DNA of 64,000 nt from positions 582,518 to 646,517 of the forward strand of contig CAZNDZ010000001.1 of the NCBI GenBank assembly GCA_964572155.1, written 5' to 3'. Below, one piece after another: positions 14,479-59,927 of this stretch. This DNA comes from an uncultured Planctomycetales bacterium (GTDB lineage Bacteria > Omnitrophota > Gorgyraeia > Zapsychrales > Fredricksoniimonadaceae). Below the pieces are notes generated by a model. That model was not told where the DNA came from, ran no database searches, and saw nothing but the letters and a program-made list of their open reading frames with translations. A program made the translations under genes and the position numbers. Each line of letters starts with the position of its first letter. Position 1 is the stretch's first letter.

Positions 14479-17400
14479 ATGTTGAAGCGATTCTTAATTC
14501 CCATTTTATGCGTTTGTTTACTACCATTGCCGCAACTCCATGCCGCAGAAGGATTTTTGTCGCTGCCTGCGCCTGGAACCATGGTGCATTTAAGCCCTTC
14601 TTTTAATCCACCGCTTTTAAAAGGGATTAAGGTGCATTTAGATGACCCATTTAAATTTGATTTCATTATCAATAATACCGTAGAGACGCGATTTATCGCG
14701 TCTGATACAACAAAATTAATCAAATATTTCCTAGCCGCCTTAACCACCCCAGAACAAGACATGTGGGTTAATTTAAGCCCCTATGAAAAAGACCGCATTG
14801 TGCCAGATGGTTTTGGCCAAACTGAAATGGGCCGTGATCTATTAGCCCAAGATTACATCTTAAAGCAAATCACTGCGAGTCTGATTTATCCTGAAGATGC
14901 CATTGGCAAAGAATTCTGGAAACGTATTTATGAAGCAACAGCTAATAAAAATATTCCTGTTAATACGTTTAATAAAGTTTGGATTGTCCCAAATAAAGCC
15001 GTGGTCTATGAGAATGTTAAAGCAGGTACAGCTTATGTTGTTGAGTCATCATTAAAAGTTTTAACAGAGCAAGACTATAGCGCAAATCAGAAGAATAATT
15101 CCCAAGATAACAATAATCTAATTGTTAAAGACGTTGTTATCCCTCAATTAACCAAAGAAGTCAATGAAGGCGCAAATTTTGCACAGTTGCGACAAGTCTA
15201 CAATGCCTTAATTTTAGCAACGTGGTATAAGAAAAAAATTAAAGATAGCATCTTATCAAAGGTTTATACCGACCAAAATAAAATTAACGGGGTCAATATT
15301 AATGATCCTCTAGAAAAAGAAAGAATTTATGCCCGCTATTTAGAAGCTTTTAAGAAGGGCGCCTTTAATTACATCAAAGACTCTGGACTGCCAAATGGTA
15401 CAACAGCCCCAAGAAAATATTTTGCCGGCGGTTTTAATTTTGCCATGACAAGTCATATGGATTATGTCACATCCATCCCAGACAAATCCCTGACGGGTGA
15501 TACAGCCATTGTTCGTATTGAATTAAATGCATTTAATGATCAAGCCATGACCGTTGAGAGTGATCATTGGTACTTTGAGATGATAGCGCATAAAGAGTAT
15601 CGGATTGTAAAGAAGCGATGGTTAAATGCGGAGATTATCCGTGGTTTAAATGATCAACGTTTAAAGAAGTATTTAGATGAGATTTCACAAGCGGGTTTTG
15701 ATTCGGTTGAAAATCTGGCGCGGTTTTCATTTGGCACATCCACAACGCATGATATTTATAAGGATTTAATGTATGTTCAAAATAGCATCCGCACGTGGGT
15801 ATTTGATTATTTAGAGGACATAGAATTTGCTAGAAACCATCAACGTAAAGATCGTTTAACTGAGCTTATCAATGTTTTAAAGCTTTTTAGTAAAGATCCA
15901 AAGCTGATCTCACATCGCATCAAGAATGTCGGTTTAAAAGAAGCTGAGTATTTAAAACGCTTGATGTTGGTGTTGATGCATTCTGATCAAACAGGAGCTT
16001 TAAGTTTTAGATTTGATGGGAATGATGTGTTGATTGACGTGATCAATCGATCAGGTTTGCTGGAAACCATTGATTATTTGCGCAACGTTCAGCAAGGATT
16101 CTACCAAGTCGATCAATATTTAGAGAATGAAGATTTGATAGAACGATTGATCCATTATTATGAGGATTTATTACAAACAAATCCATATGGAGTTTATGAA
16201 GATCTGATTGATGAAGATGTTTTTGTGAATACGCCTTTTCTAGCATTAGGAGTTCTCTATAAGTTATGGCAAGAGGGTGATTTGAAAGTTAAAGGCAACA
16301 TAGCAAGTATTCTTAATAGAGCTGTTCTAGAGAATGAGTCCTTGCAAGCGTCGTATGATCGGTTTGCAGACCTATTACCAGAAGATGCTGTGATGAAAGT
16401 CATTTTGCATGGCCCAAATGATTCGGGGAATGTGTTACCATTGAAAGATGCAGATAAAGATGAAGCCATGACTTCCCGTCGTAGTTTATTGCTGGGGGCG
16501 GGGTTTCTGACGCTAGCAGGTGCGGGGAGTGTGCTTACGCTTAATCAAACATTGAATCGCCCATACATGGAGTGGGTGGATCCAACAACATCGCAGCGTT
16601 TTGGATTTGCGGGATTTACGTATCCTCAAGCTAGGCTTATTAATGTGATTAAAGGCATTTTTGATAATCAAGGCAATTTGTCGGCGTGGGGTAAGGCGGA
16701 TGAAGTTTATGTAAGGGAGATTTTAAAAGATCTGGTTGTTAATGATAACTTTCAGCAATTTGCTAAGGATTATTATGACGCGCTTATGCGCGCTGAAACA
16801 GCTTTTAATCAAAAGCCATTTGATGTTATTGCGGTCGAGGGGCAATTGCCAGATCCAAGGTGGGATGGCAAGTCTGTTATCGTTGATTATGGCGCCTACA
16901 ATCGCATCATCGATGTGATGCATAAGACGATTGCTTCTTTATTTGAAAATCAAACAGAGCAGCTAGACCTAAAGCAATTGTCTGATGTTGTCGATGCGCT
17001 TGTTATTCCACCACATGTCTTGATTGCTCGACGCAATGCAGCCTTTGCAAAAGTTAAGATGACATATATTGAGAAGCATGTGCTTTATCATGACAATGTG
17101 CGTGACAATTTTGTTGCACAAACTTACCTCGATAGGGGTTTAGATGATGCTTACAAGGGTCAAATGGAGTTGGCTAAAAAGAGCGCATCAGCAAGATCAG
17201 CCTATATGGCAGAAATTGGAAAATCACAACAAAACATTTTATTCTTAACAAGCACTGTGCATCAAAACGATATATATGCAATTCTGTCACAGAATCAGGC
17301 CATGATCACCCGCAGGCAAGTCTTGAATTTTGGCGTTATTGCGGCTGGAAGTGTTGGTTTAGCACATTTGGAAATCATTAAAGTAGAAGAAAAAGAAGCC

Positions 17401-18558
17401 GTGAAGCCCAAGATGCCTAAAGTAACCATCATGGGCATTGCGCACCCTCCTGAAGATCTGACAGCTTACATGTTTAAGAAGTTGATCGATAAAGATATAT
17501 TGTCATTGTCTGATTTTGAGATAGTGAGGATAGCTCGTTTGTTAAAGCAATTTATCGATTCAAATCAACGCATGCTTGCGCAATACGAAACTACCATTGA
17601 TAAGTTTTCTGCATTTATGGCGCGTCATGAAGTAAGAGTTGTTGGTGTCGAGGGTGCTGTCATGTCTCAACATACAAAGCAAGGGGAAGTAATTTCGATC
17701 AATCCAAATACGATTGAACTATACAAGAAAAAGGTAGAGAGAGCTGCAAAGACCTTGTGGAGTCGAGACGAAGCAAAGAAATATCTACCAGAATTGATGA
17801 AGGTGTGTTTGCCCATGGCTCATTATCTTTCAGTCAAATACCCTAAACCCCAAGAGATAAGAATATTGCCTTTAGAAAATGGTGTAATCCTTCAAGATGC
17901 GTACATTAGAAATAAACAGATGCTAGAAGCTAGGGCATTTTTACGTGATCGATTATTCGATGCGGATCAGTTAAATGATTTGAATAAACGAAGATTAGCT
18001 AATGCCGTCGAGCAGTTAGATCTAAGCGCCGTTAAGGAATTAGAGGATTATTTTAATACGATCAAGAAGATTTCTGTGGAGCATCGCACTGCAATAAATC
18101 AAGGTGTTCAAAGACTTAAAGATGCTGTGAAAGCCATGGTTGATATTAACAAAAAACGTCAACAACATTGGGCAGATCAGATTACAGGCATTAATCAGAA
18201 GGAAATTACAGGTATAAATAAAAACGAAATTGCAGTCATTGCTAGTTCAGCATGGACTAAAGACTTGGAGAATGTATTACATGCAAAAGCCGATGCAGAA
18301 AAACAAAAGATAGAAACACAGGTAGAGTTGATCGATCAAGCAATGACGGCAACAGGGGGTATTGATTTTAATGCCGATAAGATTGACTTCGATATTAAGA
18401 ACTCCGGCGAGGATATTAAATTTAATGTCGATCCTACAACGCTTGAACGATGGAACAATGTGACGGGGTTTGTGCCGGTGATTATTAATGTAAAACCCCT
18501 GCCACAAGGCGCAGCAGGGGTTTTGGATTTAAAAGCGTTTTTAGGAATTACTTCTTAG
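14479..18558 (+). CDS. large secreted/membrane protein of unknown family (P1), paralog of 45471-47357
   Basis: Sec signal peptide (MLKRFLIPILCVCLLPLPQLHA|AEG). A ~400-aa N-terminal domain and a ~70-aa C-terminal domain are shared with P2. Two internal Met-initiated Tat-like hydrophobic segments (MTSRRSLLLGAGFLTLAGAGS; MITRRQVLNFGVIAAGSVGLA). I recognised no known catalytic motif. Confidence 0.6.
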   Translation: MLKRFLIPILCVCLLPLPQLHAAEGFLSLPAPGTMVHLSPSFNPPLLKGIKVHLDDPFKFDFIINNTVETRFIASDTTKLIKYFLAALTTPEQDMWVNLSPYEKDRIVPDGFGQTEMGRDLLAQDYILKQITASLIYPEDAIGKEFWKRIYEATANKNIPVNTFNKVWIVPNKAVVYENVKAGTAYVVESSLKVLTEQDYSANQKNNSQDNNNLIVKDVVIPQLTKEVNEGANFAQLRQVYNALILATWYKKKIKDSILSKVYTDQNKINGVNINDPLEKERIYARYLEAFKKGAFNYIKDSGLPNGTTAPRKYFAGGFNFAMTSHMDYVTSIPDKSLTGDTAIVRIELNAFNDQAMTVESDHWYFEMIAHKEYRIVKKRWLNAEIIRGLNDQRLKKYLDEISQAGFDSVENLARFSFGTSTTHDIYKDLMYVQNSIRTWVFDYLEDIEFARNHQRKDRLTELINVLKLFSKDPKLISHRIKNVGLKEAEYLKRLMLVLMHSDQTGALSFRFDGNDVLIDVINRSGLLETIDYLRNVQQGFYQVDQYLENEDLIERLIHYYEDLLQTNPYGVYEDLIDEDVFVNTPFLALGVLYKLWQEGDLKVKGNIASILNRAVLENESLQASYDRFADLLPEDAVMKVILHGPNDSGNVLPLKDADKDEAMTSRRSLLLGAGFLTLAGAGSVLTLNQTLNRPYMEWVDPTTSQRFGFAGFTYPQARLINVIKGIFDNQGNLSAWGKADEVYVREILKDLVVNDNFQQFAKDYYDALMRAETAFNQKPFDVIAVEGQLPDPRWDGKSVIVDYGAYNRIIDVMHKTIASLFENQTEQLDLKQLSDVVDALVIPPHVLIARRNAAFAKVKMTYIEKHVLYHDNVRDNFVAQTYLDRGLDDAYKGQMELAKKSASARSAYMAEIGKSQQNILFLTSTVHQNDIYAILSQNQAMITRRQVLNFGVIAAGSVGLAHLEIIKVEEKEAVKPKMPKVTIMGIAHPPEDLTAYMFKKLIDKDILSLSDFEIVRIARLLKQFIDSNQRMLAQYETTIDKFSAFMARHEVRVVGVEGAVMSQHTKQGEVISINPNTIELYKKKVERAAKTLWSRDEAKKYLPELMKVCLPMAHYLSVKYPKPQEIRILPLENGVILQDAYIRNKQMLEARAFLRDRLFDADQLNDLNKRRLANAVEQLDLSAVKELEDYFNTIKKISVEHRTAINQGVQRLKDAVKAMVDINKKRQQHWADQITGINQKEITGINKNEIAVIASSAWTKDLENVLHAKADAEKQKIETQVELIDQAMTATGGIDFNADKIDFDIKNSGEDIKFNVDPTTLERWNNVTGFVPVIINVKPLPQGAAGVLDLKAFLGITS

Positions 18559-28589: not shown

Positions 28590-31064
28590 ATGGCACCCGC
28601 AAATGGTAAGCATTCGGATTGGTCGATTTCCGGTAAAGAAATGACAAAAGAGGCATTAAAGGCGTCGTTTCAACACAATCGACAATACACATTGTCGAAA
28701 GATGAATACACTGCCACGATGCATGATAATTTTTTAGCCCTGTCATTATCGGTGCGTGAACGTTTGGTTGAGCGCTGGATTAAAACACAGCAGCATTACC
28801 ATAAAGATAATTCCCGACGAGTTTATTATTTATCCATGGAGTTCTTGATTGGCCGTTTGATGGGCAATAACATTTATAATTTAGGCATCGAGAAACAGTC
28901 TGCGGAAGCTCTAAAAGAACTTGGGATGGATATGGATGTTGTGCGGGAGCAAGAAGTTGATGCTGGTTTGGGTAATGGCGGTTTAGGTAGACTTGCAGCA
29001 TGCTTCTTGGATTCTATGGCAAGCCTTGGCATCCCATCGCATGGTTATGGCATTCGCTATGATTACGGGATCTTTAATCAGAAAATTGTGAATGGTTTTC
29101 AAGTTGAGTTGCCTGACGAGTGGCTTCGTGCGGTGAACCCTTGGGAATTTGCTCGTCCAGAAAACACGGTGAAAGTTGCTTTTTATGGTCGGACGCAAAC
29201 CTATCAAGATCAAAATGGTAAGTTAAAAGTCAAATGGATCGACACGCAAGATGTGTTGGCGGTGCCGTATGATACGCCCGTTGCGGGTTATAAGAATGAT
29301 GTGGTTAATACCTTGCGCTTGTGGTCAGCGCGCAGTTCTGAAGAATTTGATTTCGATTATTTTAAAAGCGGGGATTATGATCAGGCTGTTTATAAAAAGA
29401 TCCTTTCGGAGAATATTTCCAAGGTTTTGTATCCGTCGGACAATATAGATCAAGGTAAAGAACTCCGTTTAAAGCAAGAATATTTTTTCACCGCGGCAGC
29501 CATCGCAGATATTTTAAGAAGATATAAAGCGGAAAATTCCGATCTAAAAGAGTTGGCCAGTAAGGTGGTCATCCAATTAAATGACACGCATCCAACCTTA
29601 GCGATCGTCGAACTTATGCGCTTATTGATGGATGTCCATGACATGGAGTGGGTCGATGCTTGGGAAATCACGCAAAAAGTTTTTGCGTACACCAATCATA
29701 CCTTGCTGCCGGAAGCCTTAGAGTGCTGGTCGCTGGATCTTTTTGAAAATCTTTTACCGCGTCACGCACAAATTATTTTTGAGATCAATGCGCAATTCTT
29801 AAGAACCATTGTGTTGCGGTATCCAAATGATCATGACCGTTTGCGCCGCATGTCTTTAATTGAAGAGGGTAATCCTAAGCGGGTTCGAATGGCCTATTTA
29901 GCCATCATCGGAAGTGCTTCGGTCAATGGCGTCTCTGCATTGCATTCGGAGCTTCTTAAAGAGCATTTGTTTAAGGATTTCTATGAACTGACACCGGAGA
30001 AATTTAATAATAAAACCAATGGCATAACTCAGCGGCGATGGCTGCTTAAAGCAAATCCTAAGTTGTCTTCGCTGATCACAACATCCATTGGGGATCAATG
30101 GGTTACCAACTTAACGCAATTAGAACAATTACAGCAATTTGCGTCGCAACAATCATTTCGCGATCAATGGTTTGATATCAAACGGCAGAATAAAGAGAGC
30201 TTGGCAAAGTATATTGCCGCCAACATGAATATTCAGGTAGATCCAACGTCGATGTTTGACGTCCAGATCAAGCGTATTCATGAGTATAAGCGTCAGATGT
30301 TGTTTGCGTTATATATTGTGTCGCAATATTTGCGCATTAAGCATAATCCTAATGATTTTATTTGTCCGCGCACCTTTATCATTGGGGGCAAAGCTGCGCC
30401 ATCTTACCATATGGCAAAATTGACGATCAAGCTGATCAACAGCATTGCCGATGTGATCAATAAAGATAAAGATATGAAAGGTAAACTCCGTTTGGTGTTT
30501 TTGGAGAATTACCGCGTGTCTTTGGCAGAAAGAATTTTTCCAGCCAGTGATTTATCAGAACAAATCTCGACGGCAGGGATGGAAGCGTCAGGAACAGGTA
30601 ACATGAAGTTCATGGTTAATGGGGCGCTGACGGTTGGTACATTAGACGGCGCCAACGTTGAAATGGCAGAACAAGTTGGGATGGATAATATTTTTATTTT
30701 TGGTTTAAAGGTAAATGAAGTAGAATCTTTAAAAGAGCGCGGGTACCGTCCTAAAGAATATATTGATCGTTCTCCCATGTTGGGCCAGATCTTTCAATTG
30801 ATCCATGGGGATTTCTTTAGTCCAGAAATGCCAGGATTATTTGCGCCCATTGTGCAGTCTTTAATGCATCACGACACATATATGGTGTGCGCTGATTTTG
30901 ATAGTTATTGCCAGATGCAAGATAAAATATCGACGATGTATTTGAATCGCGATGAATGGGTCAAGCGATCGATCATCAATGTCGCAAAAAGCGGGTTCTT
31001 CTCAAGCGATCGCACCATCCGTGAATATGCTAAGGGCATTTGGAATGTTCCCGTTAGTCACTAG
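28590..31064 (+). CDS. glgP: glycogen/maltodextrin phosphorylase
   Basis: PLP-site EASGTGNMKFMVNGALTVGTLDGANVEM and overall GT35 length. Confidence 0.9.
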   Translation: MAPANGKHSDWSISGKEMTKEALKASFQHNRQYTLSKDEYTATMHDNFLALSLSVRERLVERWIKTQQHYHKDNSRRVYYLSMEFLIGRLMGNNIYNLGIEKQSAEALKELGMDMDVVREQEVDAGLGNGGLGRLAACFLDSMASLGIPSHGYGIRYDYGIFNQKIVNGFQVELPDEWLRAVNPWEFARPENTVKVAFYGRTQTYQDQNGKLKVKWIDTQDVLAVPYDTPVAGYKNDVVNTLRLWSARSSEEFDFDYFKSGDYDQAVYKKILSENISKVLYPSDNIDQGKELRLKQEYFFTAAAIADILRRYKAENSDLKELASKVVIQLNDTHPTLAIVELMRLLMDVHDMEWVDAWEITQKVFAYTNHTLLPEALECWSLDLFENLLPRHAQIIFEINAQFLRTIVLRYPNDHDRLRRMSLIEEGNPKRVRMAYLAIIGSASVNGVSALHSELLKEHLFKDFYELTPEKFNNKTNGITQRRWLLKANPKLSSLITTSIGDQWVTNLTQLEQLQQFASQQSFRDQWFDIKRQNKESLAKYIAANMNIQVDPTSMFDVQIKRIHEYKRQMLFALYIVSQYLRIKHNPNDFICPRTFIIGGKAAPSYHMAKLTIKLINSIADVINKDKDMKGKLRLVFLENYRVSLAERIFPASDLSEQISTAGMEASGTGNMKFMVNGALTVGTLDGANVEMAEQVGMDNIFIFGLKVNEVESLKERGYRPKEYIDRSPMLGQIFQLIHGDFFSPEMPGLFAPIVQSLMHHDTYMVCADFDSYCQMQDKISTMYLNRDEWVKRSIINVAKSGFFSSDRTIREYAKGIWNVPVSH

Positions 31065-32653: not shown

Positions 32654-32863
32654 ATGGAATATAAGGTTTTATTAAGCTTCCAAGAAGCTTTGGTAAAGCA
32701 AGAGTTTGAGTCTTGCCAGAAGATCATCGCTGATGCAAAGCAATCTGGGATCAATCAAATTGAGATTGATGCTGTGATCGCTGCGTATTTACGGGGTGAT
32801 GTGCGCGGAAAAGACAATATATCATATCCCAAAAACCGTTTAAGGTTTCTTAAGGAGAATTAA
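32654..32863 (+). CDS. small hypothetical protein (69 aa)
   Basis: Strong SD AGGAGGG 7 nt upstream. No recognisable domain. Confidence 0.4.
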   Translation: MEYKVLLSFQEALVKQEFESCQKIIADAKQSGINQIEIDAVIAAYLRGDVRGKDNISYPKNRLRFLKEN

Positions 32864-34361
32864 TTAATGATTGTAATTGTTCTAGATAATCCGCTGGTAT
32901 AGGGATGCCCATATTTTTTGCTTTTTGGGCATCCCCATACGCTTGAATGTAAAGTCCTAAGGTCTTCTGTGCAATTGATCGGTTAAAGTAAGCTTCCCCA
33001 AGCGATGGTTCAATGCTCAAAGCCGTACTAAAATCATCGATGGCTTTCTGATGTTGTCCTAACATGCCCCACATGGTGCCACGACCAATGTAGTTGCGTG
33101 CAAAGCCAGGTGATAATTCAATGGCTTTATTGTAATCAGCCAACGCTAACGTCAATTGACCTGTGCCATAATAATAATGCGCACGGTTGTTATAGCCCGA
33201 GAATGCGTCGGGATATGCGCGGATCACTTCATTATAAAAACTCAATGTGCTTTGCCAAACACGAGACTGTAGATGGGTTTTATAAATCATCAGGCCAATG
33301 AGAATAATGACAACGGTTTTTCCGACGCGTGATTTCCAAAGATTGCTTGAGAATATGCCAAGCAAGATACAAAATCCTAGGCATGGCAAATACATGAAGC
33401 GGTCATTAACGACGGACGCATCAACACCGACGTCGAAACGCAGTAAGAAGAAAATAGATAGAAAGAAGTATGCGCCAGCAAAAATGTATAACCTGCGACG
33501 ACGCCAGATGATCAAAGACATTAAGGCTAATACAAAGAATACAAGGCTTAAGCCATATGCCCACGTATAAATATGCACGGGCATGGGTAGTTTATAGAAG
33601 GCATAAACATTGGCAGGAAATAAAAATTTCCAAATGTAGAAGCCACATGACCATATCCAAACAAGCAATGCGCTACTAAAATCTGCAATAGGATTGCGCA
33701 TATTTTGCGCGTAGGTGATCCAACCAATACCGCCGGCAATTGCCATAAATGGGATCTTTTCCATCACGGTCTTTAGATTAAATCCTCGACGAAAATACCA
33801 ATCTAATAAGAATAAAATCAATGGCAAGCTTAGCGCCATGGGTTTGCTTAAGATGCTCAACATTGCCCACACAATGGCAAAGGCATAGGCGCCTGAAGAT
33901 TTATCCGTTATATATTTGGTATATGACACAAGGGCTAACATATAAAATAAGCTGTATAAAACATCCTTGCGTTCTGTAGCCCATGCGACAGATTCTACCT
34001 TCATAGGGTGAACAGCGAATACAAGCACGGCAAAAAATGCTGCCATAGATGTAATGTTTAAACGTTTTGTGAAGATGAAAACAATCCAACAAACCGCAAT
34101 ATGCAAAATGAGGTTATTTAAATGAAATATGAAGGGATTGAGCCCAAAAAAGAATTTTTCAACGGCAAATGAAAGGGTGGTTAAGGGCAAATAAATCTTG
34201 TTAATGCTTTGGGTAAAAATGAGTTGGATTGAATCAGGAAAATAGATGACCGCTGGGTTTAAGAAAATGTGTTGTGGGTCATCAAATTGCAGAAAACCTG
34301 CACTTAAGGCAGGCCAGAAAGCAAACGCGCACGCAATAATTACTATAAAAAATTTAATCAT
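32850..34361 (-). CDS. TMTC/PMT-like GT-C membrane glycosyltransferase with C-terminal TPR repeats
   Basis: N-terminal loop motif FLQFDDP, ~10 TM, and C-terminal TPRs (AHYYYGTGQLTLALADYNKAIELSP...YIGRGTMW...AIDDFSTALSIEP). Confidence 0.6.
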   Translation of the reverse strand: MIKFFIVIIACAFAFWPALSAGFLQFDDPQHIFLNPAVIYFPDSIQLIFTQSINKIYLPLTTLSFAVEKFFFGLNPFIFHLNNLILHIAVCWIVFIFTKRLNITSMAAFFAVLVFAVHPMKVESVAWATERKDVLYSLFYMLALVSYTKYITDKSSGAYAFAIVWAMLSILSKPMALSLPLILFLLDWYFRRGFNLKTVMEKIPFMAIAGGIGWITYAQNMRNPIADFSSALLVWIWSCGFYIWKFLFPANVYAFYKLPMPVHIYTWAYGLSLVFFVLALMSLIIWRRRRLYIFAGAYFFLSIFFLLRFDVGVDASVVNDRFMYLPCLGFCILLGIFSSNLWKSRVGKTVVIILIGLMIYKTHLQSRVWQSTLSFYNEVIRAYPDAFSGYNNRAHYYYGTGQLTLALADYNKAIELSPGFARNYIGRGTMWGMLGQHQKAIDDFSTALSIEPSLGEAYFNRSIAQKTLGLYIQAYGDAQKAKNMGIPIPADYLEQLQSLINSP

Positions 34362-34381: not shown

Positions 34382-36034
34382 ATGCTTAAAAACAAAGCGC
34401 AAATTTGTGCATTTCTTCTCTGTTTAGGCGCGATGGGCATCATTGCATATTATGCCTTCGTGACCGTCAATTGTTTGGCTTACCCGTGGTGGGTTGGACT
34501 TGGCAGCGATGGTGATGGCACGTATGTGACCCAAACCTTGCTGTTACTTAACAATGGTCCTTTGGAATTGATTTTTCATCCAGGAGCCAGTGCGTATGGT
34601 TTGCTTGGGATCATCTTGCGTATCATAGGAAATTTAGATCCCACGCATGCATTTCTGTCATTATCTGCAATGCAAAATCCTGTGCAAGTTTTTGCGATGT
34701 TAGATCATGCCATGCATGTTTCTCGTCTGGTTGTCGTTATCCTTAATATGATATGCCTCTTGCTTTTCTGGCGAGTTTTGTATCAATTGAGTAAAAATCT
34801 TTTGATTGCGTTGGGGTTATCTGCATTCTTCATGACCACCTATTTTATGATGGAACAGCGGGCTTTTATCATTCGACCGGAGATCTTTAGTTTCTTTTAT
34901 ATGTTGTTGTGTGTCACGTTATTGATAAGCACACAACAACGCCTCGCATCAGGGCTGTCGGTAGGTATTTTTAGAATGATGGGCATAGGCATTCTTGCTG
35001 GATTAGCTTTCTTAGCAAAGTTCCAGACGTTGCCATTGATCGCGTGTCTCTTTATTTGGTGGGTTTTTGCAACATCCAGTAAATTTCAAAAGAATATCGA
35101 GACCCGCATCCTTTGGGTTGCTTGTGCTAGTGCGGTTGTGAATATTGTCATCATGCCATGGTCATGGCTCAAACGTCCTGATTTTTTATTAGATTTTTTA
35201 AAGAACTTATACTATTTGCGTGAAGAGCATCAGCTCTATGGGCCTGCACCTGCGAGTGTTGCACCTGTGTATGCAGTAGTCCTATTTTTATTATTAGCCA
35301 TTTCTCTGGCGGCTGCATGTATAAGGCATCCTTATCAGAATATAGTCGCTAGGTATTTGATTAAGATAAATTTCTTTATTACAGGATTCATTGCGTCGTG
35401 TTATCTGGTTTTTTTAGGTTTAGGGCAGAGCATGGCTGCATATGTGGCAGCATCTAATCATTTATTATATTCTGTAACAACCAATGTTTTATACGGCGGG
35501 GCTGCAAATCATCGCATGATTGATCATAGGACATTCGAGGCGATCGTAAATGTTCATAATGGCAGTCAGATTCTTGGTGTGAGTGTATTATGGTATGTAG
35601 TTGCGGCAGCCTGCTTTTGTTTTATTCGCTTGCTACGATCATCGACGGAAAGAAATAAGTATGGGCTAGTCTTGCTGGTGTTTGCCATTGGCTTAACCAT
35701 GGATATCTTGTCTACATTTAGGCAGTATTCCAAAGAGCAGGTCATCATTGTTGCGTCATATGCGATTTATTCTTTATCTGTTTACTGTTGTGGCCTAGCG
35801 TTATTATGTGCTTTGGAAATGCAAGTGCTGCGGCAGCGTTTAGGCAAGATGCAGATTCAAACCATTGTAAGTTTTGCATTAATGTTTAATATGTTGATTG
35901 TCGCCAATCACGTTTGGCGTCTGGAGCGCTGGGATGTGGTTAATCATCGGGGCCAGAACGCACAGCAAGAAATGTTAAACACAACCTCACAAGTGCCTGG
36001 TTTTTGGCACATGGTTTCACAAGGGAAGATTTAA
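34382..36034 (+). CDS. polytopic membrane protein (possible GT-C-type glycosyltransferase), unknown function
   Basis: ~13 predicted TM segments; first periplasmic loop has WWVGLGSDGDGTYV. Confidence 0.35.
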   Translation: MLKNKAQICAFLLCLGAMGIIAYYAFVTVNCLAYPWWVGLGSDGDGTYVTQTLLLLNNGPLELIFHPGASAYGLLGIILRIIGNLDPTHAFLSLSAMQNPVQVFAMLDHAMHVSRLVVVILNMICLLLFWRVLYQLSKNLLIALGLSAFFMTTYFMMEQRAFIIRPEIFSFFYMLLCVTLLISTQQRLASGLSVGIFRMMGIGILAGLAFLAKFQTLPLIACLFIWWVFATSSKFQKNIETRILWVACASAVVNIVIMPWSWLKRPDFLLDFLKNLYYLREEHQLYGPAPASVAPVYAVVLFLLLAISLAAACIRHPYQNIVARYLIKINFFITGFIASCYLVFLGLGQSMAAYVAASNHLLYSVTTNVLYGGAANHRMIDHRTFEAIVNVHNGSQILGVSVLWYVVAAACFCFIRLLRSSTERNKYGLVLLVFAIGLTMDILSTFRQYSKEQVIIVASYAIYSLSVYCCGLALLCALEMQVLRQRLGKMQIQTIVSFALMFNMLIVANHVWRLERWDVVNHRGQNAQQEMLNTTSQVPGFWHMVSQGKI

Positions 36035-36036
36035 GC

Positions 36037-36900
36037 ATGATCAAACGCATCTTGATCGCCATCGTAGCGATTGTCCTTGTTGGTTCTATTTACGTCGCGC
36101 TCAATGCAAAACGTTGGGCGATGGCTTATATAAAGAAAGAAATCAGTGAATCATTACAAACCAAATCTGTGACGATCAAAGATTTGCGATTGCCGCTTCA
36201 TGGCCCAATTGTCTTAAATGGGCTTGTGATCAAAAAAGATAATGTGATGGAATTAAATGTCAGCGACATTGTCCTTGATAAAGGCATTTGGTCAGTATTC
36301 AGTGGTAGTACCGGCGATATACACATTAAATCTGTTCTTGTGAATCAACTGATGATTCAAAATGTGCACTTAAACGTTTGGTGGCATAAGCAAGATTTGG
36401 TCTTTCATATTCTAGACGGCAAGATTTTAAATGGGACAATGAAGGGTAATGCCATTTTTGAATTACGAACGATACCAGCGTATCAAGCCCGTTTGGATTT
36501 AGTTGACATTAGCTTGCCAAAGTTCATCAATGATTTTAAATTGCAAAAGAAGTTATCATTATCGGGAAAAGTTTCAGGGGTGATTGAGGTTAAGGGCAGC
36601 GGCAAGAACTTTAGCATTATTCATGGTGATTTAAGTAACGTCGACAAAGGCGGTGAACTGATCATCGAAGACACGGTATTCTTAAAGCAAATGGTTAAGA
36701 GCATGAAGTTAGATAAGTATGCAGGATCAGAAGATTTAGTTGTGGCTAGTTTAAAACATTATCTTTATAATAAATTAAAAGCATCGTTGAATTTAGAGAA
36801 GGGCGATTTATTTTTAGAAGCGACGTTAGAAGGGGATGCGGGTAAGCGTAGTTTTCCCATTGTGTATCATGATTTTAATTTAGAAAGGTTAGGTTTATGA
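36037..36900 (+). CDS. short AsmA-family / YdbH-like protein (single N-terminal TM anchor)
   Basis: N-terminal TM (ILIAIVAIVLVGSIYV) followed by a beta-rich region. Sits immediately upstream of the YnbE-YdbL fusion gene, and the ydbH-ynbE-ydbL order is conserved in Proteobacteria. Confidence 0.45.
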   Translation: MIKRILIAIVAIVLVGSIYVALNAKRWAMAYIKKEISESLQTKSVTIKDLRLPLHGPIVLNGLVIKKDNVMELNVSDIVLDKGIWSVFSGSTGDIHIKSVLVNQLMIQNVHLNVWWHKQDLVFHILDGKILNGTMKGNAIFELRTIPAYQARLDLVDISLPKFINDFKLQKKLSLSGKVSGVIEVKGSGKNFSIIHGDLSNVDKGGELIIEDTVFLKQMVKSMKLDKYAGSEDLVVASLKHYLYNKLKASLNLEKGDLFLEATLEGDAGKRSFPIVYHDFNLERLGL

Positions 36901-37448
36901 AAGAATTCCTCGTTGTAGTAGCATCAGCAGTATTCCTTGCCGGTTGTGCGCACATTACAGTTGATGCGCCAAAAGAGCCCATTAAATTAGACGTTACCAT
37001 GCGGTTGGATATTTATCAACATATTCAAAGTGATATCGATGACATTGAAAATATGGTGAGCGGTTCTGGCAAAAAAGCACAAGCCAAAGATAAGCATAGC
37101 TTCTTAGAATTATTAATCACCAATGCGTATGCCCAAGAGGGTTTAGGAGCGCAAGTCCAAGAAGCGGTTGAACGTCGCAAAGCACGTCGAGATGAACTGA
37201 TCGCTTTAGAGGAATCTGGGGCTATTGGCGAAAACAGCAGTGGCATGGTTGTTGTTAAGAAACCAGCTGGTAATGCCGCAGCCTTGGTCAGCGCTGAGAA
37301 TGCCGATCGCAAGGCCATTTATCAAGCGGTTGCCGATAAAAATGGCAGTTCTGCGGATGAGGTAGCTGCTTTGTATGCCAAGCGTTTACAGAATGATGCG
37401 CCTTCAGGAACACCTATTGAAACAGACGGTGGATGGCAGATAAAGTAA
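36897..37448 (+). CDS. YnbE-like lipoprotein fused to a YdbL (DUF1318) domain
   Basis: Lipobox FLAGCAHITVDAPKEPIKLDVTMRLDIY (the YnbE hallmark APKEPI), and a C-terminal DUF1318 consensus AIYQAVADKNGSSADEVAALYAKRLQNDAPSGTPIETDGGWQIK. Confidence 0.65.
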   Translation: MKEFLVVVASAVFLAGCAHITVDAPKEPIKLDVTMRLDIYQHIQSDIDDIENMVSGSGKKAQAKDKHSFLELLITNAYAQEGLGAQVQEAVERRKARRDELIALEESGAIGENSSGMVVVKKPAGNAAALVSAENADRKAIYQAVADKNGSSADEVAALYAKRLQNDAPSGTPIETDGGWQIK

Positions 37449-38998
37449 AACTTATAGTCGCCTTTGGCGCGTGGCTTGTTTTAGGCATCTTGCTCTATGC
37501 TAAGACATTTCACGCGCCATTTCTTTTTGACGACGAGATCTTGATCCTTCGTAATCCGATGGTGCAAGATCTGACCCACGGGCTGGCATCGCTTAAAAAC
37601 ATATTTAGTTATCAACCCTCCCGCATCTTTACTAACTTAACGGTAGCGCTTAATTTTCACTTCTGTCATGTGGACACCTTTGGATATCATGTGACCAATT
37701 GGATGTTGCACATCTTGGTTACTTTAGGGGTATGGTATTTCACCCGGCAGATCATTGCCATCCATAAGATAACGACACAAATAGATGTGCCGTTTTGGGC
37801 GTCGTTACTATTTCTGGTTCATCCGTTGCACACCGAATCAGTCAGTTATATCAATCATCGCAGCAGCGTGCTTGTGACCTTGTTTTATTTGTGGTCTTTG
37901 ATCTTTTATATCAAAGCGAGGGTGGGCAATGATGGTCGATATTTCATGCCTGCGTGTGTTTTGGCGGTTTTGTCTTTGTTGAGCAAAGAATCAGGGTGGA
38001 CATTGCCTTTGGTGTGGATGTTGGCGGATGCAATGTTGATTAAAAAGCCAACGCCTAAAATTGTGTGGGGATCTTTGTTGGCATTATTGGTTGTGATGTT
38101 TGCCATTTTTGATTTCAAGGTCAAACAAATATTGATGACGCAGGTTTATTCTCAGTCGCACCGAGGAGATTTTTTAACCTTAGGGACTTATCTTTTAACC
38201 CAATTAAAAGTGTGCATCGTATTTTTAAGGCTAATGTTTTTCCCAGTTGGACTCAATGCCGATTATGATTTTGCCATATCGCATTCATTGTGGGAGCCAC
38301 AAACAATGGGAGCGGCGGTGATTTTGATGTTGTTGGCTATAGCAGCTTTTCTTTGGCGTCATCGCTGTTGGTATCTGACGTGGGGGGTTGCGGCATTCTT
38401 TATTTCGTTATTAAGTCATTTTTTCCCTGCGCGTTACAATGTCATTGCAGAACACAAGTTGTATCTAACCTTAGCACTCATCATCCCCGTGGCTGTTTTG
38501 TGGCTTCATGATTATTCTAAAAAATATTTTATGGTGATCATAAGTGTTGTGATTGCAATTTTTGCTGTATTGACGATACAACGCAATGAAGTGTGGGCAA
38601 GTCCGATCAAACTTTGGCAAGACACGGCAAAGAAGTCACCTTTAAAACCTCGAGCACATTTAAATTTAGCCACAGCGTTGTTAAACCACGGCCAAGACAA
38701 GGAAGCAGAAGCGCTATTCTTTCATGTGATTCAAATAGCACCAGAATATTGCGAGTCTTATATCAATTTAGCGCAGATTGAAACTAATCGAGGCAATCTT
38801 GAGAAAGCATTGGCATATTCTAATCAAGCCATTGTGGTTAATCCAACGTTTGATATTGGGTATCTGCAGAATGGTTTCCTCAATGATCGCATGGGTCGAC
38901 GGGAGGCTGCGATCAAAAGTTTTTCCGTATGGCTTAAAACGCATCCAAATGATGTGACCATCAGCAACCGTGTTAAATTTCTACAAAATCAATTGTAG
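37433..38998 (+). CDS. TMTC/PMT-like GT-C membrane glycosyltransferase with C-terminal TPR repeats (second copy)
   Basis: FHAPFLFDDEILILRNP loop motif, multi-TM, and C-terminal TPRs (AHLNLATALLNHGQDKEAEALF...YINLAQIETNRGNLEKALAYSNQAIVVNP). Confidence 0.6.
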   Translation: MADKVKLIVAFGAWLVLGILLYAKTFHAPFLFDDEILILRNPMVQDLTHGLASLKNIFSYQPSRIFTNLTVALNFHFCHVDTFGYHVTNWMLHILVTLGVWYFTRQIIAIHKITTQIDVPFWASLLFLVHPLHTESVSYINHRSSVLVTLFYLWSLIFYIKARVGNDGRYFMPACVLAVLSLLSKESGWTLPLVWMLADAMLIKKPTPKIVWGSLLALLVVMFAIFDFKVKQILMTQVYSQSHRGDFLTLGTYLLTQLKVCIVFLRLMFFPVGLNADYDFAISHSLWEPQTMGAAVILMLLAIAAFLWRHRCWYLTWGVAAFFISLLSHFFPARYNVIAEHKLYLTLALIIPVAVLWLHDYSKKYFMVIISVVIAIFAVLTIQRNEVWASPIKLWQDTAKKSPLKPRAHLNLATALLNHGQDKEAEALFFHVIQIAPEYCESYINLAQIETNRGNLEKALAYSNQAIVVNPTFDIGYLQNGFLNDRMGRREAAIKSFSVWLKTHPNDVTISNRVKFLQNQL

Positions 38999-39016: not shown

Positions 39017-40057
39017 TTATGCAAATTTACTTTTATCGATGGCTTTGAGAAAGGCGTTTTCTTTGGTGATTTTGCCTGTTGTGACCAAGGCCATGAGGGA
39101 ATCATCCATGAGTTGCATGCCTGCAGCGCGATTCATTTGAATCTCACTATTTAATTTGTTGGTCTCGCCGGATTGGATGATGTTCGATAACGCAGAAGAG
39201 CGCAATAAGATTTCATATGCCGCATGTCGGCGATTGCCATCCACGCTTGGAATAAGTTGTTGTGCGATGATCGCTTTTAAATTATTAGCTAAAATGGTTC
39301 GGATTTGATTCTTACGGCTCATGGGAAATGCATCCACGATACGGTCAACAGTTTTGGCCGCAGAGTTGGTGTGTAAGGTGCCAAAGACAAGGATGCCCAT
39401 TTCCGATGCGGTGAGGGCTAATTCCATCGTTTCTGCATCACGCATTTCACCGACTAAGATAATATTCGCATCACTCTTAATGGCAGTGCGCAGTCCACTT
39501 GAGAAAGAAACTGTATCTCGCCCAACCTCACGGTGGGTGATCAGACATTTCTTCTTGGGGTGAATGAATTCAACCGGCTCTTCAATGGTGATGATCTTAA
39601 AAGCAAAGTTGGTATTAATATAATCAATCAAGGCGGCCAAGGTGGTTGATTTACCACTTCCCGTCGGACCTGTAACCAAGACAAGGCCAGACTTCCATTT
39701 TGCAAAGTTCTTGATGTGTTGCGGCAAATCCAATTCTTCAATGGTGCGAATTTTTGATGGGATCAAACGAAAAACAGCGCCGATGCCGTAAAAGTGTTTG
39801 AAGTAATTGGCACGCATGCGCGTATCGTTAAATGCATGGGCAAAATCTAAATCTCCAGTTGATAAGAAATTGCGCCATTCATTGGGTTCAGCAATGGGAG
39901 ATAATAATTTAGTTAGGGATTCATTGGTTAAGACAGCGTCGCCAATTTCGATCAATGTGCCTTGCAAACGCATTTTAGGTTTTTGTCCTTCTTCTAAGTG
40001 AAGGTCAGAACCTTTGCGTTCGATTAAGATATTAAATAATGCATCAATTTCGGCCAT
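39017..40057 (-). CDS. pilT: type IV pilus retraction ATPase, PilT family
   Basis: Walker A GLVLVTGPTGSGKSTTLAA plus Asp and His boxes; PilT-length. Confidence 0.85.
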   Translation of the reverse strand: MAEIDALFNILIERKGSDLHLEEGQKPKMRLQGTLIEIGDAVLTNESLTKLLSPIAEPNEWRNFLSTGDLDFAHAFNDTRMRANYFKHFYGIGAVFRLIPSKIRTIEELDLPQHIKNFAKWKSGLVLVTGPTGSGKSTTLAALIDYINTNFAFKIITIEEPVEFIHPKKKCLITHREVGRDTVSFSSGLRTAIKSDANIILVGEMRDAETMELALTASEMGILVFGTLHTNSAAKTVDRIVDAFPMSRKNQIRTILANNLKAIIAQQLIPSVDGNRRHAAYEILLRSSALSNIIQSGETNKLNSEIQMNRAAGMQLMDDSLMALVTTGKITKENAFLKAIDKSKFA

Positions 40058-40058
40058 T

Positions 40059-41168
40059 TTAAGTTTTTCCTAACATGGTCATCATCATGGCTGGGTTTGT
40101 CGCACGATCGAGGGCATCAGTGTTTGAAATGAGCCCGCCGTTGGCCATGGTTTGTAATGAGCTGTCCATCAATTGCATGCCAAAAGATCGCCCTGTGGTC
40201 ATGACATTATTTAATTGAGATATTTTGCCTTCACGGATGGAGCTGGCAACAGGTTGATTGACAATCAAGACTTCGAATGCCGGAACCATGCCGCTGCCAT
40301 CTTTTTTAGGGATGAGCTGTTGGCAAATAACGCCGCGTAATGATTCAGAGAGCATGTTGCGCATAATGCCTTGTTCGTCGGCCGGAAAAGAGTCGATTAA
40401 TTTTGAAATGGTTTGCATGGCATTGACCGTGTTCATTGTACCAAACACAAGATGTCCTGTTTCCGCCGCTGAGATAGCTAATTGAATTGTTTTAAGGTCG
40501 CGCAATTCGGAAATGATCAAGATGTCGGGATCTTCGCGCAATGCCGCACGCAAGGCATTGTTTTGAGACATGGTGTGGCTGCCAACTTCACGTTGGGTGA
40601 TCTGACATTTATTTGGTTTAAACACAATTTCAATCGGGGATTCGATGGTGATGATATGTTCTGCACGATGACCATTAACAATTTCAACAAGCGAGGACAA
40701 TGTCGTGGTTTTACCGCAACCTGCAGGACCCGTCACTAGAACTAACCCTTGAGCCCATTTGGTTAAATTGATGCAAGCGTCCGATAAGCCAATTTCTTTA
40801 GGTGTTGGGATTTTAACTGGGATCAAGCGCACGGTTAATTCCCAACCATCACGCTGTTTCATTAAAGACATACGAAAACGGCCATTGCCAGGGATGGTGT
40901 GCACATATTCCGCATCTCCAGTGGCATCAAATACTTTAACAATATCGAGTGGCAATGCAGTGCGGATTAAATCTTCTGCTTTTTTTGCCGTCAATATTTC
41001 TTGAGACAGGGTGAGCAGTTGATTTAATTTTCTAAAGATCAACGGATTATTCGCAGAAAGATGCACGTCGGAGGCGCCTTGTTGCCGCGCCAGAATAAGG
41101 ATCATATTAAGGTCAGATGGGATCGCACTCATGGAAGTGATTATAAAAATGAAATGATCAATAAACAA
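40059..41168 (-). CDS. PilT/PilU-family ATPase (second paralog; start uncertain, possibly internal Met at 41132)
   Basis: Walker A GLVLVTGPAGCGKTTTLSS. In tandem with pilT. Confidence 0.75.
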   Translation of the reverse strand: MFIDHFIFIITSMSAIPSDLNMILILARQQGASDVHLSANNPLIFRKLNQLLTLSQEILTAKKAEDLIRTALPLDIVKVFDATGDAEYVHTIPGNGRFRMSLMKQRDGWELTVRLIPVKIPTPKEIGLSDACINLTKWAQGLVLVTGPAGCGKTTTLSSLVEIVNGHRAEHIITIESPIEIVFKPNKCQITQREVGSHTMSQNNALRAALREDPDILIISELRDLKTIQLAISAAETGHLVFGTMNTVNAMQTISKLIDSFPADEQGIMRNMLSESLRGVICQQLIPKKDGSGMVPAFEVLIVNQPVASSIREGKISQLNNVMTTGRSFGMQLMDSSLQTMANGGLISNTDALDRATNPAMMMTMLGKT

Positions 41169-58727: not shown

Positions 58728-59927
58728 ATGGCCATTAAGATTATTCAGCGGTATGTCTTCACATTCTTCCTAACGTTATTTTCGTTGGTAGTTTTCGTCG
58801 TAGCTATTGTGTATTTTCTAATCGCAACGCCTATTGGTGGGCGATTGTTGGTGCATTACCTCTTATTGCAATCAGCACAAACCGCCTCTGTCAGCCTTGA
58901 ATCATTTTCAGGAAACCTTAAAGAAGGGATGCAATTTAAGAATGTTCAGATTAAGAATTGCCCAATTCTTGGAACAAAGACAATTGTAACGGCGCAACGC
59001 ATGGATGTTCGCTTACCTGTTTTGGATCTAAGTAAGATTGAAGTCACGATTTTTAATGCGCGATTAGATTTGCCTAATAGTGACCCGATGTTATTTCATG
59101 CCTATATCAAAGATGGGAATATTTCTGGTGATGTTGAAGCAAAGATCCTGGATATATCCGTATTATTGCAAGCATTTTTGAAAACGGATTTGTATAAGAT
59201 GGTGCATGGTACAGCATCTTCGGCGAAGTTCGATGTCAGTGGGAGCGTCTTGAGTCCTTCTGTGAAAGGTGGTTTTGTCGCTGATAAAGTAACCTATGGT
59301 GATAAAGTAGTGCGGCAAATTTTTGCTAAAGTAGATGTAACCTTGGCCTATGCGAATGATCAATGGCAAATGCGTGGATTGGTACTTTTAGATGGTGGTG
59401 AAGTGGATGTTAATAAGAATACGTTTAACCTTGAGTTAAGTAGGATTACTTTTAAAGAGAACATGATTGATCCCGACGTTGATATCCGTTGCACCATTCA
59501 TAAAGATATCTATGACATTGACATGCGCGTATTAGGAACAATCAAATACAATAAGATCACCGCTCAATCAGATCCTTATTTAACACAAGAAGGCGCATTC
59601 ATGTTGCTTGGGATGGGCAATTGGTCTCCACTAAACAATGCGTCACTAAATCTTCAGAGCGATGCCCAATCCATGGGTATTAAGAGAAAATTAGGTGAGA
59701 ACTTAAATGTGGGTTATGGTTATGAGCAATCGTCAGAGAATTTTAGAGGAGAGTCTAATTCCATCCAATTTTTGCAAGGTCAAATGTCCTTGTCTGATGG
59801 ACTTTCAGTTAACGTCGAGAAAACAATTTCTTCCTCTCATGAGAGGGATCGTTTTAATAGCACTAACATTGATCCAAGAAAAGATAACGAGTCGCGCATG
59901 TATTTGAAGTATCAGAATAAGTTTTAA
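58728..59927 (+). CDS. membrane-anchored beta-rich protein, possible short AsmA/TamB-like (DUF490-like), hypothetical
   Basis: N-terminal TM, a long beta-rich periplasmic region, and a C-terminal aromatic residue. Confidence 0.3.
   Translation: MAIKIIQRYVFTFFLTLFSLVVFVVAIVYFLIATPIGGRLLVHYLLLQSAQTASVSLESFSGNLKEGMQFKNVQIKNCPILGTKTIVTAQRMDVRLPVLDLSKIEVTIFNARLDLPNSDPMLFHAYIKDGNISGDVEAKILDISVLLQAFLKTDLYKMVHGTASSAKFDVSGSVLSPSVKGGFVADKVTYGDKVVRQIFAKVDVTLAYANDQWQMRGLVLLDGGEVDVNKNTFNLELSRITFKENMIDPDVDIRCTIHKDIYDIDMRVLGTIKYNKITAQSDPYLTQEGAFMLLGMGNWSPLNNASLNLQSDAQSMGIKRKLGENLNVGYGYEQSSENFRGESNSIQFLQGQMSLSDGLSVNVEKTISSSHERDRFNSTNIDPRKDNESRMYLKYQNKF

Follow-up and report, generated by a model that had tools for sequence, protein, structure and literature searches.

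A candidate two-gene homologue of the YdbH-YnbE-YdbL envelope system in Omnitrophota, with a short YdbH-like protein and a YnbE-YdbL-like fusion lipoprotein

We analyzed a 64,000-nucleotide (nt) stretch of the genome of an uncultured bacterium placed in Omnitrophota (contig CAZNDZ010000001.1, positions 582,518 to 646,517; hereafter the window), in which two adjacent genes resemble the YdbH-YnbE-YdbL envelope system of Escherichia coli. That system is one of three redundant routes by which phospholipids reach the outer membrane of E. coli. Its components are encoded by three separate adjacent genes, ydbH (879 amino acids, aa), ynbE (61 aa) and ydbL (108 aa), whose sequences we took from NC_000913 as references. 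A preliminary description of the window, made from the sequence alone, had pointed to this separate arrangement in enterobacteria, and the three E. coli genes are indeed adjacent and collinear with the module described here. The module consists of a gene for a 287-aa product followed by a gene for a 183-aa product (Table 1), both open reading frames (ORFs) being present as first described. The stop codon of the former and the start codon of the latter overlap as ATGA. An alternative TTG start at 36004 would extend the first product to 298 aa; we preferred the ATG at 36037 because homologues and independent gene calls begin there. Both products were called identically on other assemblies of the same organism.

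Table 1. Coordinates of the module, its parts and other features (window positions unless a locus is named)
Feature	Coordinates	Strand	Basis or remark
Miniature YdbH-like (AsmA-superfamily) gene, 287 aa	36037–36900	+	ORF; Pfam YdbH-like above cut-off
Hydrophobic core of predicted N-terminal transmembrane anchor, residues 5–22, ILIAIVAIVLVGSIYVAL	36049–36102	+	Read from sequence; inside predicted helix 2–40
Region homologous to the C-terminal, YnbE-docking end of YdbH, residues 93–266	36313–36834	+	Pfam PF11739
YnbE-like + YdbL (DUF1318) fusion lipoprotein gene, 183 aa	36897–37448	+	ORF, profiles, structure match
Predicted lipoprotein signal peptide, lipobox L-A-G-C (FLAGC), Cys17	36897–36947	+	Read from sequence
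YnbE-like segment, residues 18–56	36948–37064	+	APKEPI, strand IKLDVTMRLDI, acidic helix SDIDDIENMV
Linker, residues 57–84: variable Lys-rich stretch, then S68-x-L70..F73..A77-Y78-A79	37065–37148	+	Low predicted local distance difference test (pLDDT) score
YdbL/DUF1318 domain, residues 85–183	37149–37445	+	Pfam PF07027; PDB 28oj profile and fold match
Multi-pass membrane protein, 550 aa, without family match	34382–36034	+	Ends 2 nt before 36037
Membrane protein with C-terminal tetratricopeptide (TPR) repeats, 521 aa	37433–38998	+	Overlaps fusion gene by 16 nt
Large multi-pass membrane protein	32850–34361	−	
PilT/T2SSE-type ATPase gene	39017–40057	−	First of tandem pair
PilT/T2SSE-type ATPase gene	40059–41168	−	Second of tandem pair
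Miniature TamB-like protein, 399 aa, not part of the module	58728–59927	+	Pfam TamB
~825-aa AsmA-like protein	L016 1269–3758		In-between gene encodes a DUF6268 protein
~825-aa AsmA-like protein	L035 1367–3847		In-between gene encodes pyruvate kinase

The 183-aa protein had been described as ending in a complete DUF1318/YdbL domain, and a curated profile, a sequence match in the PDB and a structure match all agree with that description. Pfam DUF1318 (PF07027, cut-off 27 bits) matched residues 96–183 with an E-value of 2.1e-18 and 67 bits, and it matched all 28 members of the fusion family that were scanned against Pfam. A profile of the same 28 members matched the crystal structure of E. coli YdbL (PDB 28oj) at 3.8e-9. 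The AlphaFold2 model of the fusion protein had a mean pLDDT of 79, with values above 90 over residues 85–183. Foldseek superposed the YdbL domain of this model on 28oj over 84 columns, with a target-normalised template modelling (TM) score of 0.87, a root-mean-square deviation of 1.5 Å and 33% identity.

The residues by which E. coli YdbL binds the helix of YnbE, or that are required for its function, comprise E35, N58, E60, R61, L68, N72, L87, W104 and K107; among them, a functional requirement was shown for E35, N58, W104 and K107 (PMC13464000). We followed their counterparts through an alignment of 167 distinct family sequences, from which all residue-conservation figures for the fusion protein are taken. 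E35, N58, R61 and N72 correspond to E112, N135, R138 and N149 of the window protein, each conserved in 100% of the sequences, while W104 and K107 correspond to W180 and K183 (99% each) and L87 to L164 (98%). At the position of E60 the family has Asp in 99% (D137), and at that of L68 it has Val in 66% (V145), a hydrophobic residue in both the window protein and the consensus. The counterpart of Y65 is 98–100% conserved, and two YdbL positions differ in the family, Y40 being replaced by Met or Leu and R90 by Asp. Judged from these aligned residues, the YnbE-helix-binding surface of YdbL is kept in the fusion. The domain that carries it forms the C-terminal part of a lipoprotein and is not encoded as a free periplasmic protein; instead of a Sec signal peptide of its own, it has only a degenerate, signal-peptide-like motif in the linker before it.

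The N-terminal half of the fusion protein opens with the lipobox, whose Cys17 is conserved in 100% of the family. An APKEPI motif follows at residues 24–29, preceded by H-I-T-V-D. E. coli YnbE reads CTPRIEVA-APKEPI-TINMNVKI...DKDVEELLE, with its elements in the same order as those of the fusion N-terminus; common to both are the Cys, R-[IV]-x-V-x-APKEPI, an amphipathic strand and an acidic helix. BLASTP aligned the fusion protein with E. coli YnbE at 35% identity over 55 aa. The Pfam YnbE model PF13617 detects E. coli YnbE itself at 3e-16 and is silent on the fusion family, giving no match at E ≤ 10 to the whole protein, to its N-terminal 80 residues or to any of the 28 members; custom profiles were therefore built. 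With signal peptides removed, hhalign aligned the mature N-terminus of the clade with mature enterobacterial YnbE at 89% probability (E = 2.2e-6, 31 columns). We then used a test set of 5,261 sequences, made up of six-frame ORFs of the window, 120 YnbE proteins and every ORF from the 81 loci retrieved, to run hidden Markov models (HMMs) in both directions. The HMM of the clade N-terminus recovered 120 of the 120 YnbE proteins directly after the fusions, with a best E-value of 2.9e-4 and the next unrelated sequence at 4.6. The enterobacterial YnbE HMM recovered 80 of 80 fusion ORFs, which occupied its top non-YnbE ranks. This reciprocal support is modest in absolute score (16–19 bits). The amphipathicity of the strand, expressed by an alternation measure, was 7.0 in the fusion and 6.8 in E. 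coli YnbE, whose strand is the one that augments YdbH.

We weighed these data against another origin of the segment, in which a YdbL domain would have gained a lipoprotein anchor together with a tether specific to the clade, and the likeness in APKEPI would be due to convergence or chance. Against this, the segment occupies the very place that ynbE takes between ydbH and ydbL, and its features come in the same order as in YnbE. In both directions, the reciprocal HMM test set YnbE clearly apart from ~5,000 background sequences. Moreover, the segment is more conserved than the YdbL domain across the 167 sequences, which is unexpected for a mere tether. What speaks for such an origin, besides the silence of PF13617 in all 28 members and a similarity that spans only ~31 columns, is that the most conserved residues are clade-specific: the fusions share an invariant motif, D32-x-x-M35-R36-L-D38-x-Y40-Q-H42, whose D32, M35, R36, D38, Y40 and H42 are absent from E. 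coli YnbE. Altogether we regard a non-YnbE origin as improbable. We accept the N-terminal half, with high though not full confidence, as a divergent YnbE branch because of the hhalign alignment, the reciprocal HMM test, the strand amphipathicity and the position matching that of ynbE between ydbH and ydbL. The YnbE-like N-terminus with lipobox and APKEPI that the preliminary description proposed hence stands, whereas its reading of M.LDIY as a YnbE hallmark does not, this being a signature of the Omnitrophota clade and not of enterobacterial YnbE. At the level of profiles, the DUF1318 half was matched by the curated family, and the YnbE half was matched by our custom profiles and not by PF13617.

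The two halves are joined by a linker in which pLDDT fell below 50 (residues 58–81). After its variable part, S68 (87%), L70 (87%), F73 (70%), A77 (95%), Y78 (93%) and A79 (100%) are conserved and are followed by Q-E. With its positive charges, a short semi-hydrophobic part and an A-x-A cleavage site, the linker resembles a Sec signal peptide in decay and may be the relic of a once-separate ydbL gene; such a remnant would be expected had a separate ydbL gene been joined to ynbE. We doubt that the linker still functions as a signal peptide because its hydrophobic stretch has charged residues.

For the gene upstream, Pfam YdbH-like (PF11739) matched the 287-aa protein at 2.7e-10 with 40.2 bits, above the gathering score of 26.3 bits, and a match to Pfam AsmA was below its cut-off. 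The YdbH-like match is limited to the last fifth of the 893-position profile (positions 682–850), and by hhalign and HMM alignment window residues 108–274 align to residues 672–834 of E. coli YdbH. In E. coli, W791 and W857 of YdbH cross-link to YnbE (PMC11126948), and the region of these cross-link sites is the one to which the 287-aa protein corresponds. Among 50 members of the miniature YdbH (mini-YdbH) family scanned against Pfam, 33 matched YdbH-like, 34 AsmA, eight DUF748 and four YhdP; the sole hit of the family profile in the PDB was marginal, a TamB structure (9xdc) at E = 0.028. The AlphaFold2 model of the 287-aa protein (pLDDT 90.5, predicted TM score 0.80) comprises a helix at residues 2–40 and then 17 strand segments, as assigned by DSSP. 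Sequence and model suggest an inner-membrane-anchored, beta-rich AsmA/YdbH-like protein in which the middle ~600 groove residues of YdbH are missing. The upstream protein had been taken for a drastically shortened YdbH, and the above-threshold score, together with the matches of 33 of the 50 family members, bears this out.

We surveyed how far this architecture extends beyond the window. A word-indexed protein search with the fusion protein found 511 proteins, and the best 120 of them measured 180–215 aa and each covered 88–100% of the query. Where entries among these 120 were named by organism, all were Omnitrophota/Omnitrophica, and their annotation never went beyond DUF1318/YdbL. A scan of one genome per species yielded 164 loci, and our locus statistics refer to the best 80. 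These 80 are mostly labeled Omnitrophota, apart from 12 with placeholder Planctomycetales/Planctomycetia names, one Actinomycetota and one Patescibacteria. At every one of the 80 loci a short YdbH-like gene stands directly before the fusion ORF (178–216 aa) on the same strand. Measured from the stop codon of the upstream gene, the Cys codon of the lipobox lies at a median distance of 53 nt, a spacing at which the two genes overlap or abut; they are tightly coupled. Beyond the gene pair, no other conserved neighbor of the module was found at these loci. The joint occurrence of the fusion and the short YdbH is far beyond chance.

Among the 80 loci, 73 complete copies of mini-YdbH ranged from 277 to 411 aa with a median of 378 and never approached 880 aa; the 287 aa of the window protein is at the short extreme of this family. 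Lengths fall into classes of roughly 285, 310, 342 and 380 aa, and the longer forms carry an extra insertion of ~94 residues after window residue 93. Such discrete classes suggest that whole beta-repeat units have been gained or lost. An exhaustive search with the mini-YdbH profile returned 1,200 cluster representatives at E ≤ 1e-3 and 252 at E ≤ 1e-30. The top 150 representatives were 212–400 aa long, bar one protein of 2,560 aa (P0129), which has an AsmA-type N-terminus, a TamB C-terminal domain and 15 stretches matching the mini-YdbH repeat unit (profile ~101–192). We also noted that at five of the 80 loci (L016, L021, L023, L035 and L066) an AsmA/DUF748/YhdP-like protein of ~825 aa is encoded two genes upstream of the module; part of the phylum thus has long AsmA-like proteins alongside the mini module.

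The same survey bears on whether the fusion or the short length could be an artefact of assembly, frameshift or gene calling. That such artefacts occur is shown by an E. coli-like chimera in the protein collection (P0310, 104 aa), in which residues 1–57 of YnbE run straight into residues 62–108 of YdbL. It was seen on one metagenome contig of 903 nt only and seems to reflect an in-frame deletion or faulty assembly, not a conserved fusion. For the module itself, the same full-length architecture recurs in each of the best 120 protein clusters and at 80 loci from independent genomes, identical proteins were called on several independent assemblies, and the short protein has conserved ends and a predicted membrane anchor of its own. 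We find an artefact hardly credible, and the conservation data refute it.

In E. coli and Pseudomonas aeruginosa, YdbH-YnbE-YdbL is an intermembrane phospholipid-transport system (PMC11126948, PMC13464000, PMC12447247). E. coli YdbH is anchored in the inner membrane and has a hydrophobic beta-groove; YnbE, an outer-membrane lipoprotein, adds a strand to the last strand of YdbH and also stacks on itself; and YdbL binds the C-terminal helix of YnbE and holds uncontrolled stacking in check. In cells for which the pathway is essential, too much YdbL is lethal; the YdbL:YnbE ratio is critical, an imbalance being toxic (PMC11126948, PMC13464000, PMC12447247). Of this system the clade has kept, by its sequence, the predicted anchor and the docking end of YdbH, the strand and the helix of YnbE, and the pocket of YdbL.

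We therefore propose a mechanism modeled on that of E. coli. The product of the second gene would be an outer-membrane-type lipoprotein made up of ~40 YnbE-like mature residues, a flexible linker of ~25 residues and the YdbL domain. Its strand may pair with the last strand of the mini-groove by beta-augmentation, which would link proteins of both membranes and extend the hydrophobic lipid groove. The tethered YdbL domain would bind the acidic helix of its own chain, or that of a neighboring chain. In the model of the fusion protein, helix 31–55 lies beside the YdbL domain with pLDDT of up to 91 (residues 41–50), and such a value next to a disordered linker is consistent with binding of the helix in cis. 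The fusion would hard-wire YdbL and YnbE at 1:1 and so limit runaway strand stacking or polymerisation. We infer this strand pairing, and likewise the binding of YdbL in cis, by analogy with E. coli. We consider it fairly probable that the gene pair is a compact homologue of the E. coli YdbH-YnbE-YdbL system working through such strand docking and a tethered YdbL. The preliminary description had likewise assigned the module to the YdbH-YnbE-YdbL type with a YnbE-YdbL fusion, and the gene order, the YdbL matches and the YdbH-like score are in agreement.

The length of the groove calls for some caution about bridging. A 1:1 YdbH-YnbE model of E. coli measures ~180 Å against a periplasm of ~250 Å, and artificial YdbH variants function without YnbE only when they are long enough (PMC11126948, PMC13464000, PMC12447247). 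Scaled from 180 Å per ~850 periplasmic residues, the groove would be ~5 nm long in the window protein and ~7 nm in the 380-aa class, and the pair alone is therefore unlikely to cross a conventional periplasm. A full bridge would need several stacked lipoprotein strands, a narrow envelope gap or extra partners; otherwise, the module would work locally. The preliminary description had held that such short AsmA-like proteins cannot span the periplasm on their own: the short length stands, and the claim about spanning is a proportional inference only.

Several points weigh against a bridging homologue of the E. coli system. For a classical bridge the 287-aa protein is much too short; given also the ~825-aa AsmA-like proteins that some relatives encode, the module may not be the main lipid conduit. 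The assignment of the YnbE half, to which PF13617 gave no match, draws on the short ~31-column similarity and on gene context. Lastly, in the 287-aa protein the predicted strands did not differ from shuffled sequences in hydrophobic alternation (2.07 against a shuffle mean of 1.79, with 476 of 2,000 shuffles reaching 2.07), a test that is uninformative for this protein.

Some of these points would also suit a module that is homologous to YdbH-YnbE-YdbL and yet does not bridge the membranes. It would act locally in the manner of GspN, shielding or handing over the acyl chains of a partner lipoprotein or of inner-membrane lipids, while longer AsmA-like proteins carry bulk lipid. The ~5–7 nm implied by 277–411 aa, when scaled to the ~180 Å E. 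coli model, and the ~825-aa AsmA/DUF748 proteins two genes upstream at five of 80 loci fit such a role, and so does the precedent of GspN, a known short inner-membrane beta-taco that acts on lipoproteins and has YdbH as its best E. coli structural match (PMC12802150). By contrast, no GspN model matched the window protein (NCBIfam) or the 50 family members (Pfam), the end of YdbH that remains is exactly the one to which YnbE docks, and the partner protein still has the YnbE strand along with an outer-membrane-type lipid anchor; these two features point to inter-membrane contact. We judge purely local action to be unlikely.

A further variant, which we put forward as speculation and deem quite unlikely, is that, in place of a single long AsmA-like protein, a regulated stack of YnbE-like strands makes up most of the inter-membrane lipid conduit, growing out of the outer membrane to meet a very short stub in the inner one. 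A YdbL cap, borne by every subunit on a flexible linker, would set the length of the stack. In a sub-variant, the K-rich...AYA motif of the linker might be a working processing site that frees YdbL after assembly, the gene then being a 1:1 "polyprotein".

Around the module, four genes on one strand (34382 to 38998) are packed without gaps. Their co-transcription is suggested by spacing and overlaps only, and the gene that ends just before mini-YdbH is probably co-transcribed with the module; consensus promoter and terminator scans of the window gave site counts equal to those in shuffled sequence. The two genes that flank the pair on this strand are kept only in the closest relatives (L001 and L002). 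Counting the gene on the opposite strand further upstream, the module is ringed by three large multi-pass membrane proteins (Table 1), which are shared only with the two closest relatives; two of them have C-terminal TPR repeats, and the membrane parts of all three gave no family match. Directly downstream of the module operon, on the opposite strand, lie the tandem PilT/T2SSE-type ATPase genes, which are also kept beside the module only in the two closest relatives. Two longer ORFs were considered as candidates for a full-length YdbH or AsmA-like protein. The upstream 824-aa ORF at 28590–31064 was ruled out as a full-length YdbH, being a glycogen phosphorylase. The 1,359-aa ORF at 14479–18558 (+), which starts with a signal-peptide-like N-terminus, had no Pfam family match and is not AsmA-like by Pfam.

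A second short, membrane-anchored and beta-rich protein had been noted at some distance from the module, and it is a separate miniature TamB-like protein. Residues 203–370 of this 399-aa protein matched the Pfam TamB/DUF490 C-terminal domain at 6.9e-11, and residues 14–77 resemble the N-terminus and anchor region of TamB, a weak match in NCBIfam. TamB is normally ~1,260 aa long. The gene sits between a MarC-family gene and an FKBP gene, and the adjacent genes that were scanned gave no match to the Omp85 family. A 380-aa relative is present in the protein collection.

Open questions about the YdbH-YnbE-YdbL system concern the number of YnbE copies in a working bridge, the way in which a seemingly too short complex crosses the periplasm, and the role of YdbL. 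Neither the papers on the system nor a full-text literature search yielded a mention of a YnbE-YdbL fusion or of a short YdbH; as far as we found, the two-gene module with its fusion is undescribed. Joint action of YnbE and YdbL has already been shown experimentally in E. coli, in 2026 (PMC13464000), and the fusion would lend independent evolutionary support to a direct, stoichiometric partnership of the two. The short YdbH offers a natural and sharp test of the idea that a lipid-transporting bridge must be long enough, and a complex of 287 and 183 aa should be far more tractable for structure determination or reconstitution than the 879-aa E. coli protein. The clade is also a reminder for annotation: the Pfam YnbE model misses it entirely, and databases label the fusion only as DUF1318/YdbL.

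Among known systems, TamB, YhdP and AsmA are long bridges of 600–1,300 aa; an Omp85 barrel is the docking site of TamB, and YhdP uses C-terminal helices of its own for insertion. Mini-YdbH belongs to the same superfamily, with weak matches to AsmA, DUF748 and YhdP models, and differs from TamB and YhdP in that its predicted outer-membrane partner is a small lipoprotein. It would share with GspN of some type II secretion systems a small, inner-membrane-anchored build of the AsmA/repeating-beta-groove kind, too short for the periplasm, and a link to lipoproteins (PMC12802150). Unlike GspN, it has no GspN model match, it lies outside a type II secretion operon (no conserved secretion-system neighbor was found at the 80 loci), and it is paired with a YnbE-YdbL lipoprotein. 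The closest comparison is with YdbH-YnbE-YdbL of E. coli and P. aeruginosa, with which the module shares the gene order of anchor protein, lipoprotein and YdbL. Like E. coli YdbH, the mini protein has a predicted N-terminal inner-membrane anchor and homology to the YnbE-docking end; like YnbE, the lipoprotein has the APKEPI motif and, after it, an amphipathic strand and the acidic helix that is C-terminal in YnbE; and like YdbL, the fusion has the fold and keeps the residues that bind the YnbE helix. It departs from them in its YdbH-like protein of 277–411 aa, against 855–879 aa in E. coli and P. aeruginosa, and in its own invariant motif, D-x-x-M-R-L-D-x-Y-Q-H, with which it escapes PF13617. 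Finally, where E. coli makes YnbE and YdbL separately, here they form one polypeptide across a linker of ~25 residues, so that YdbL would be lipid-anchored at a 1:1 ratio instead of free in the periplasm.

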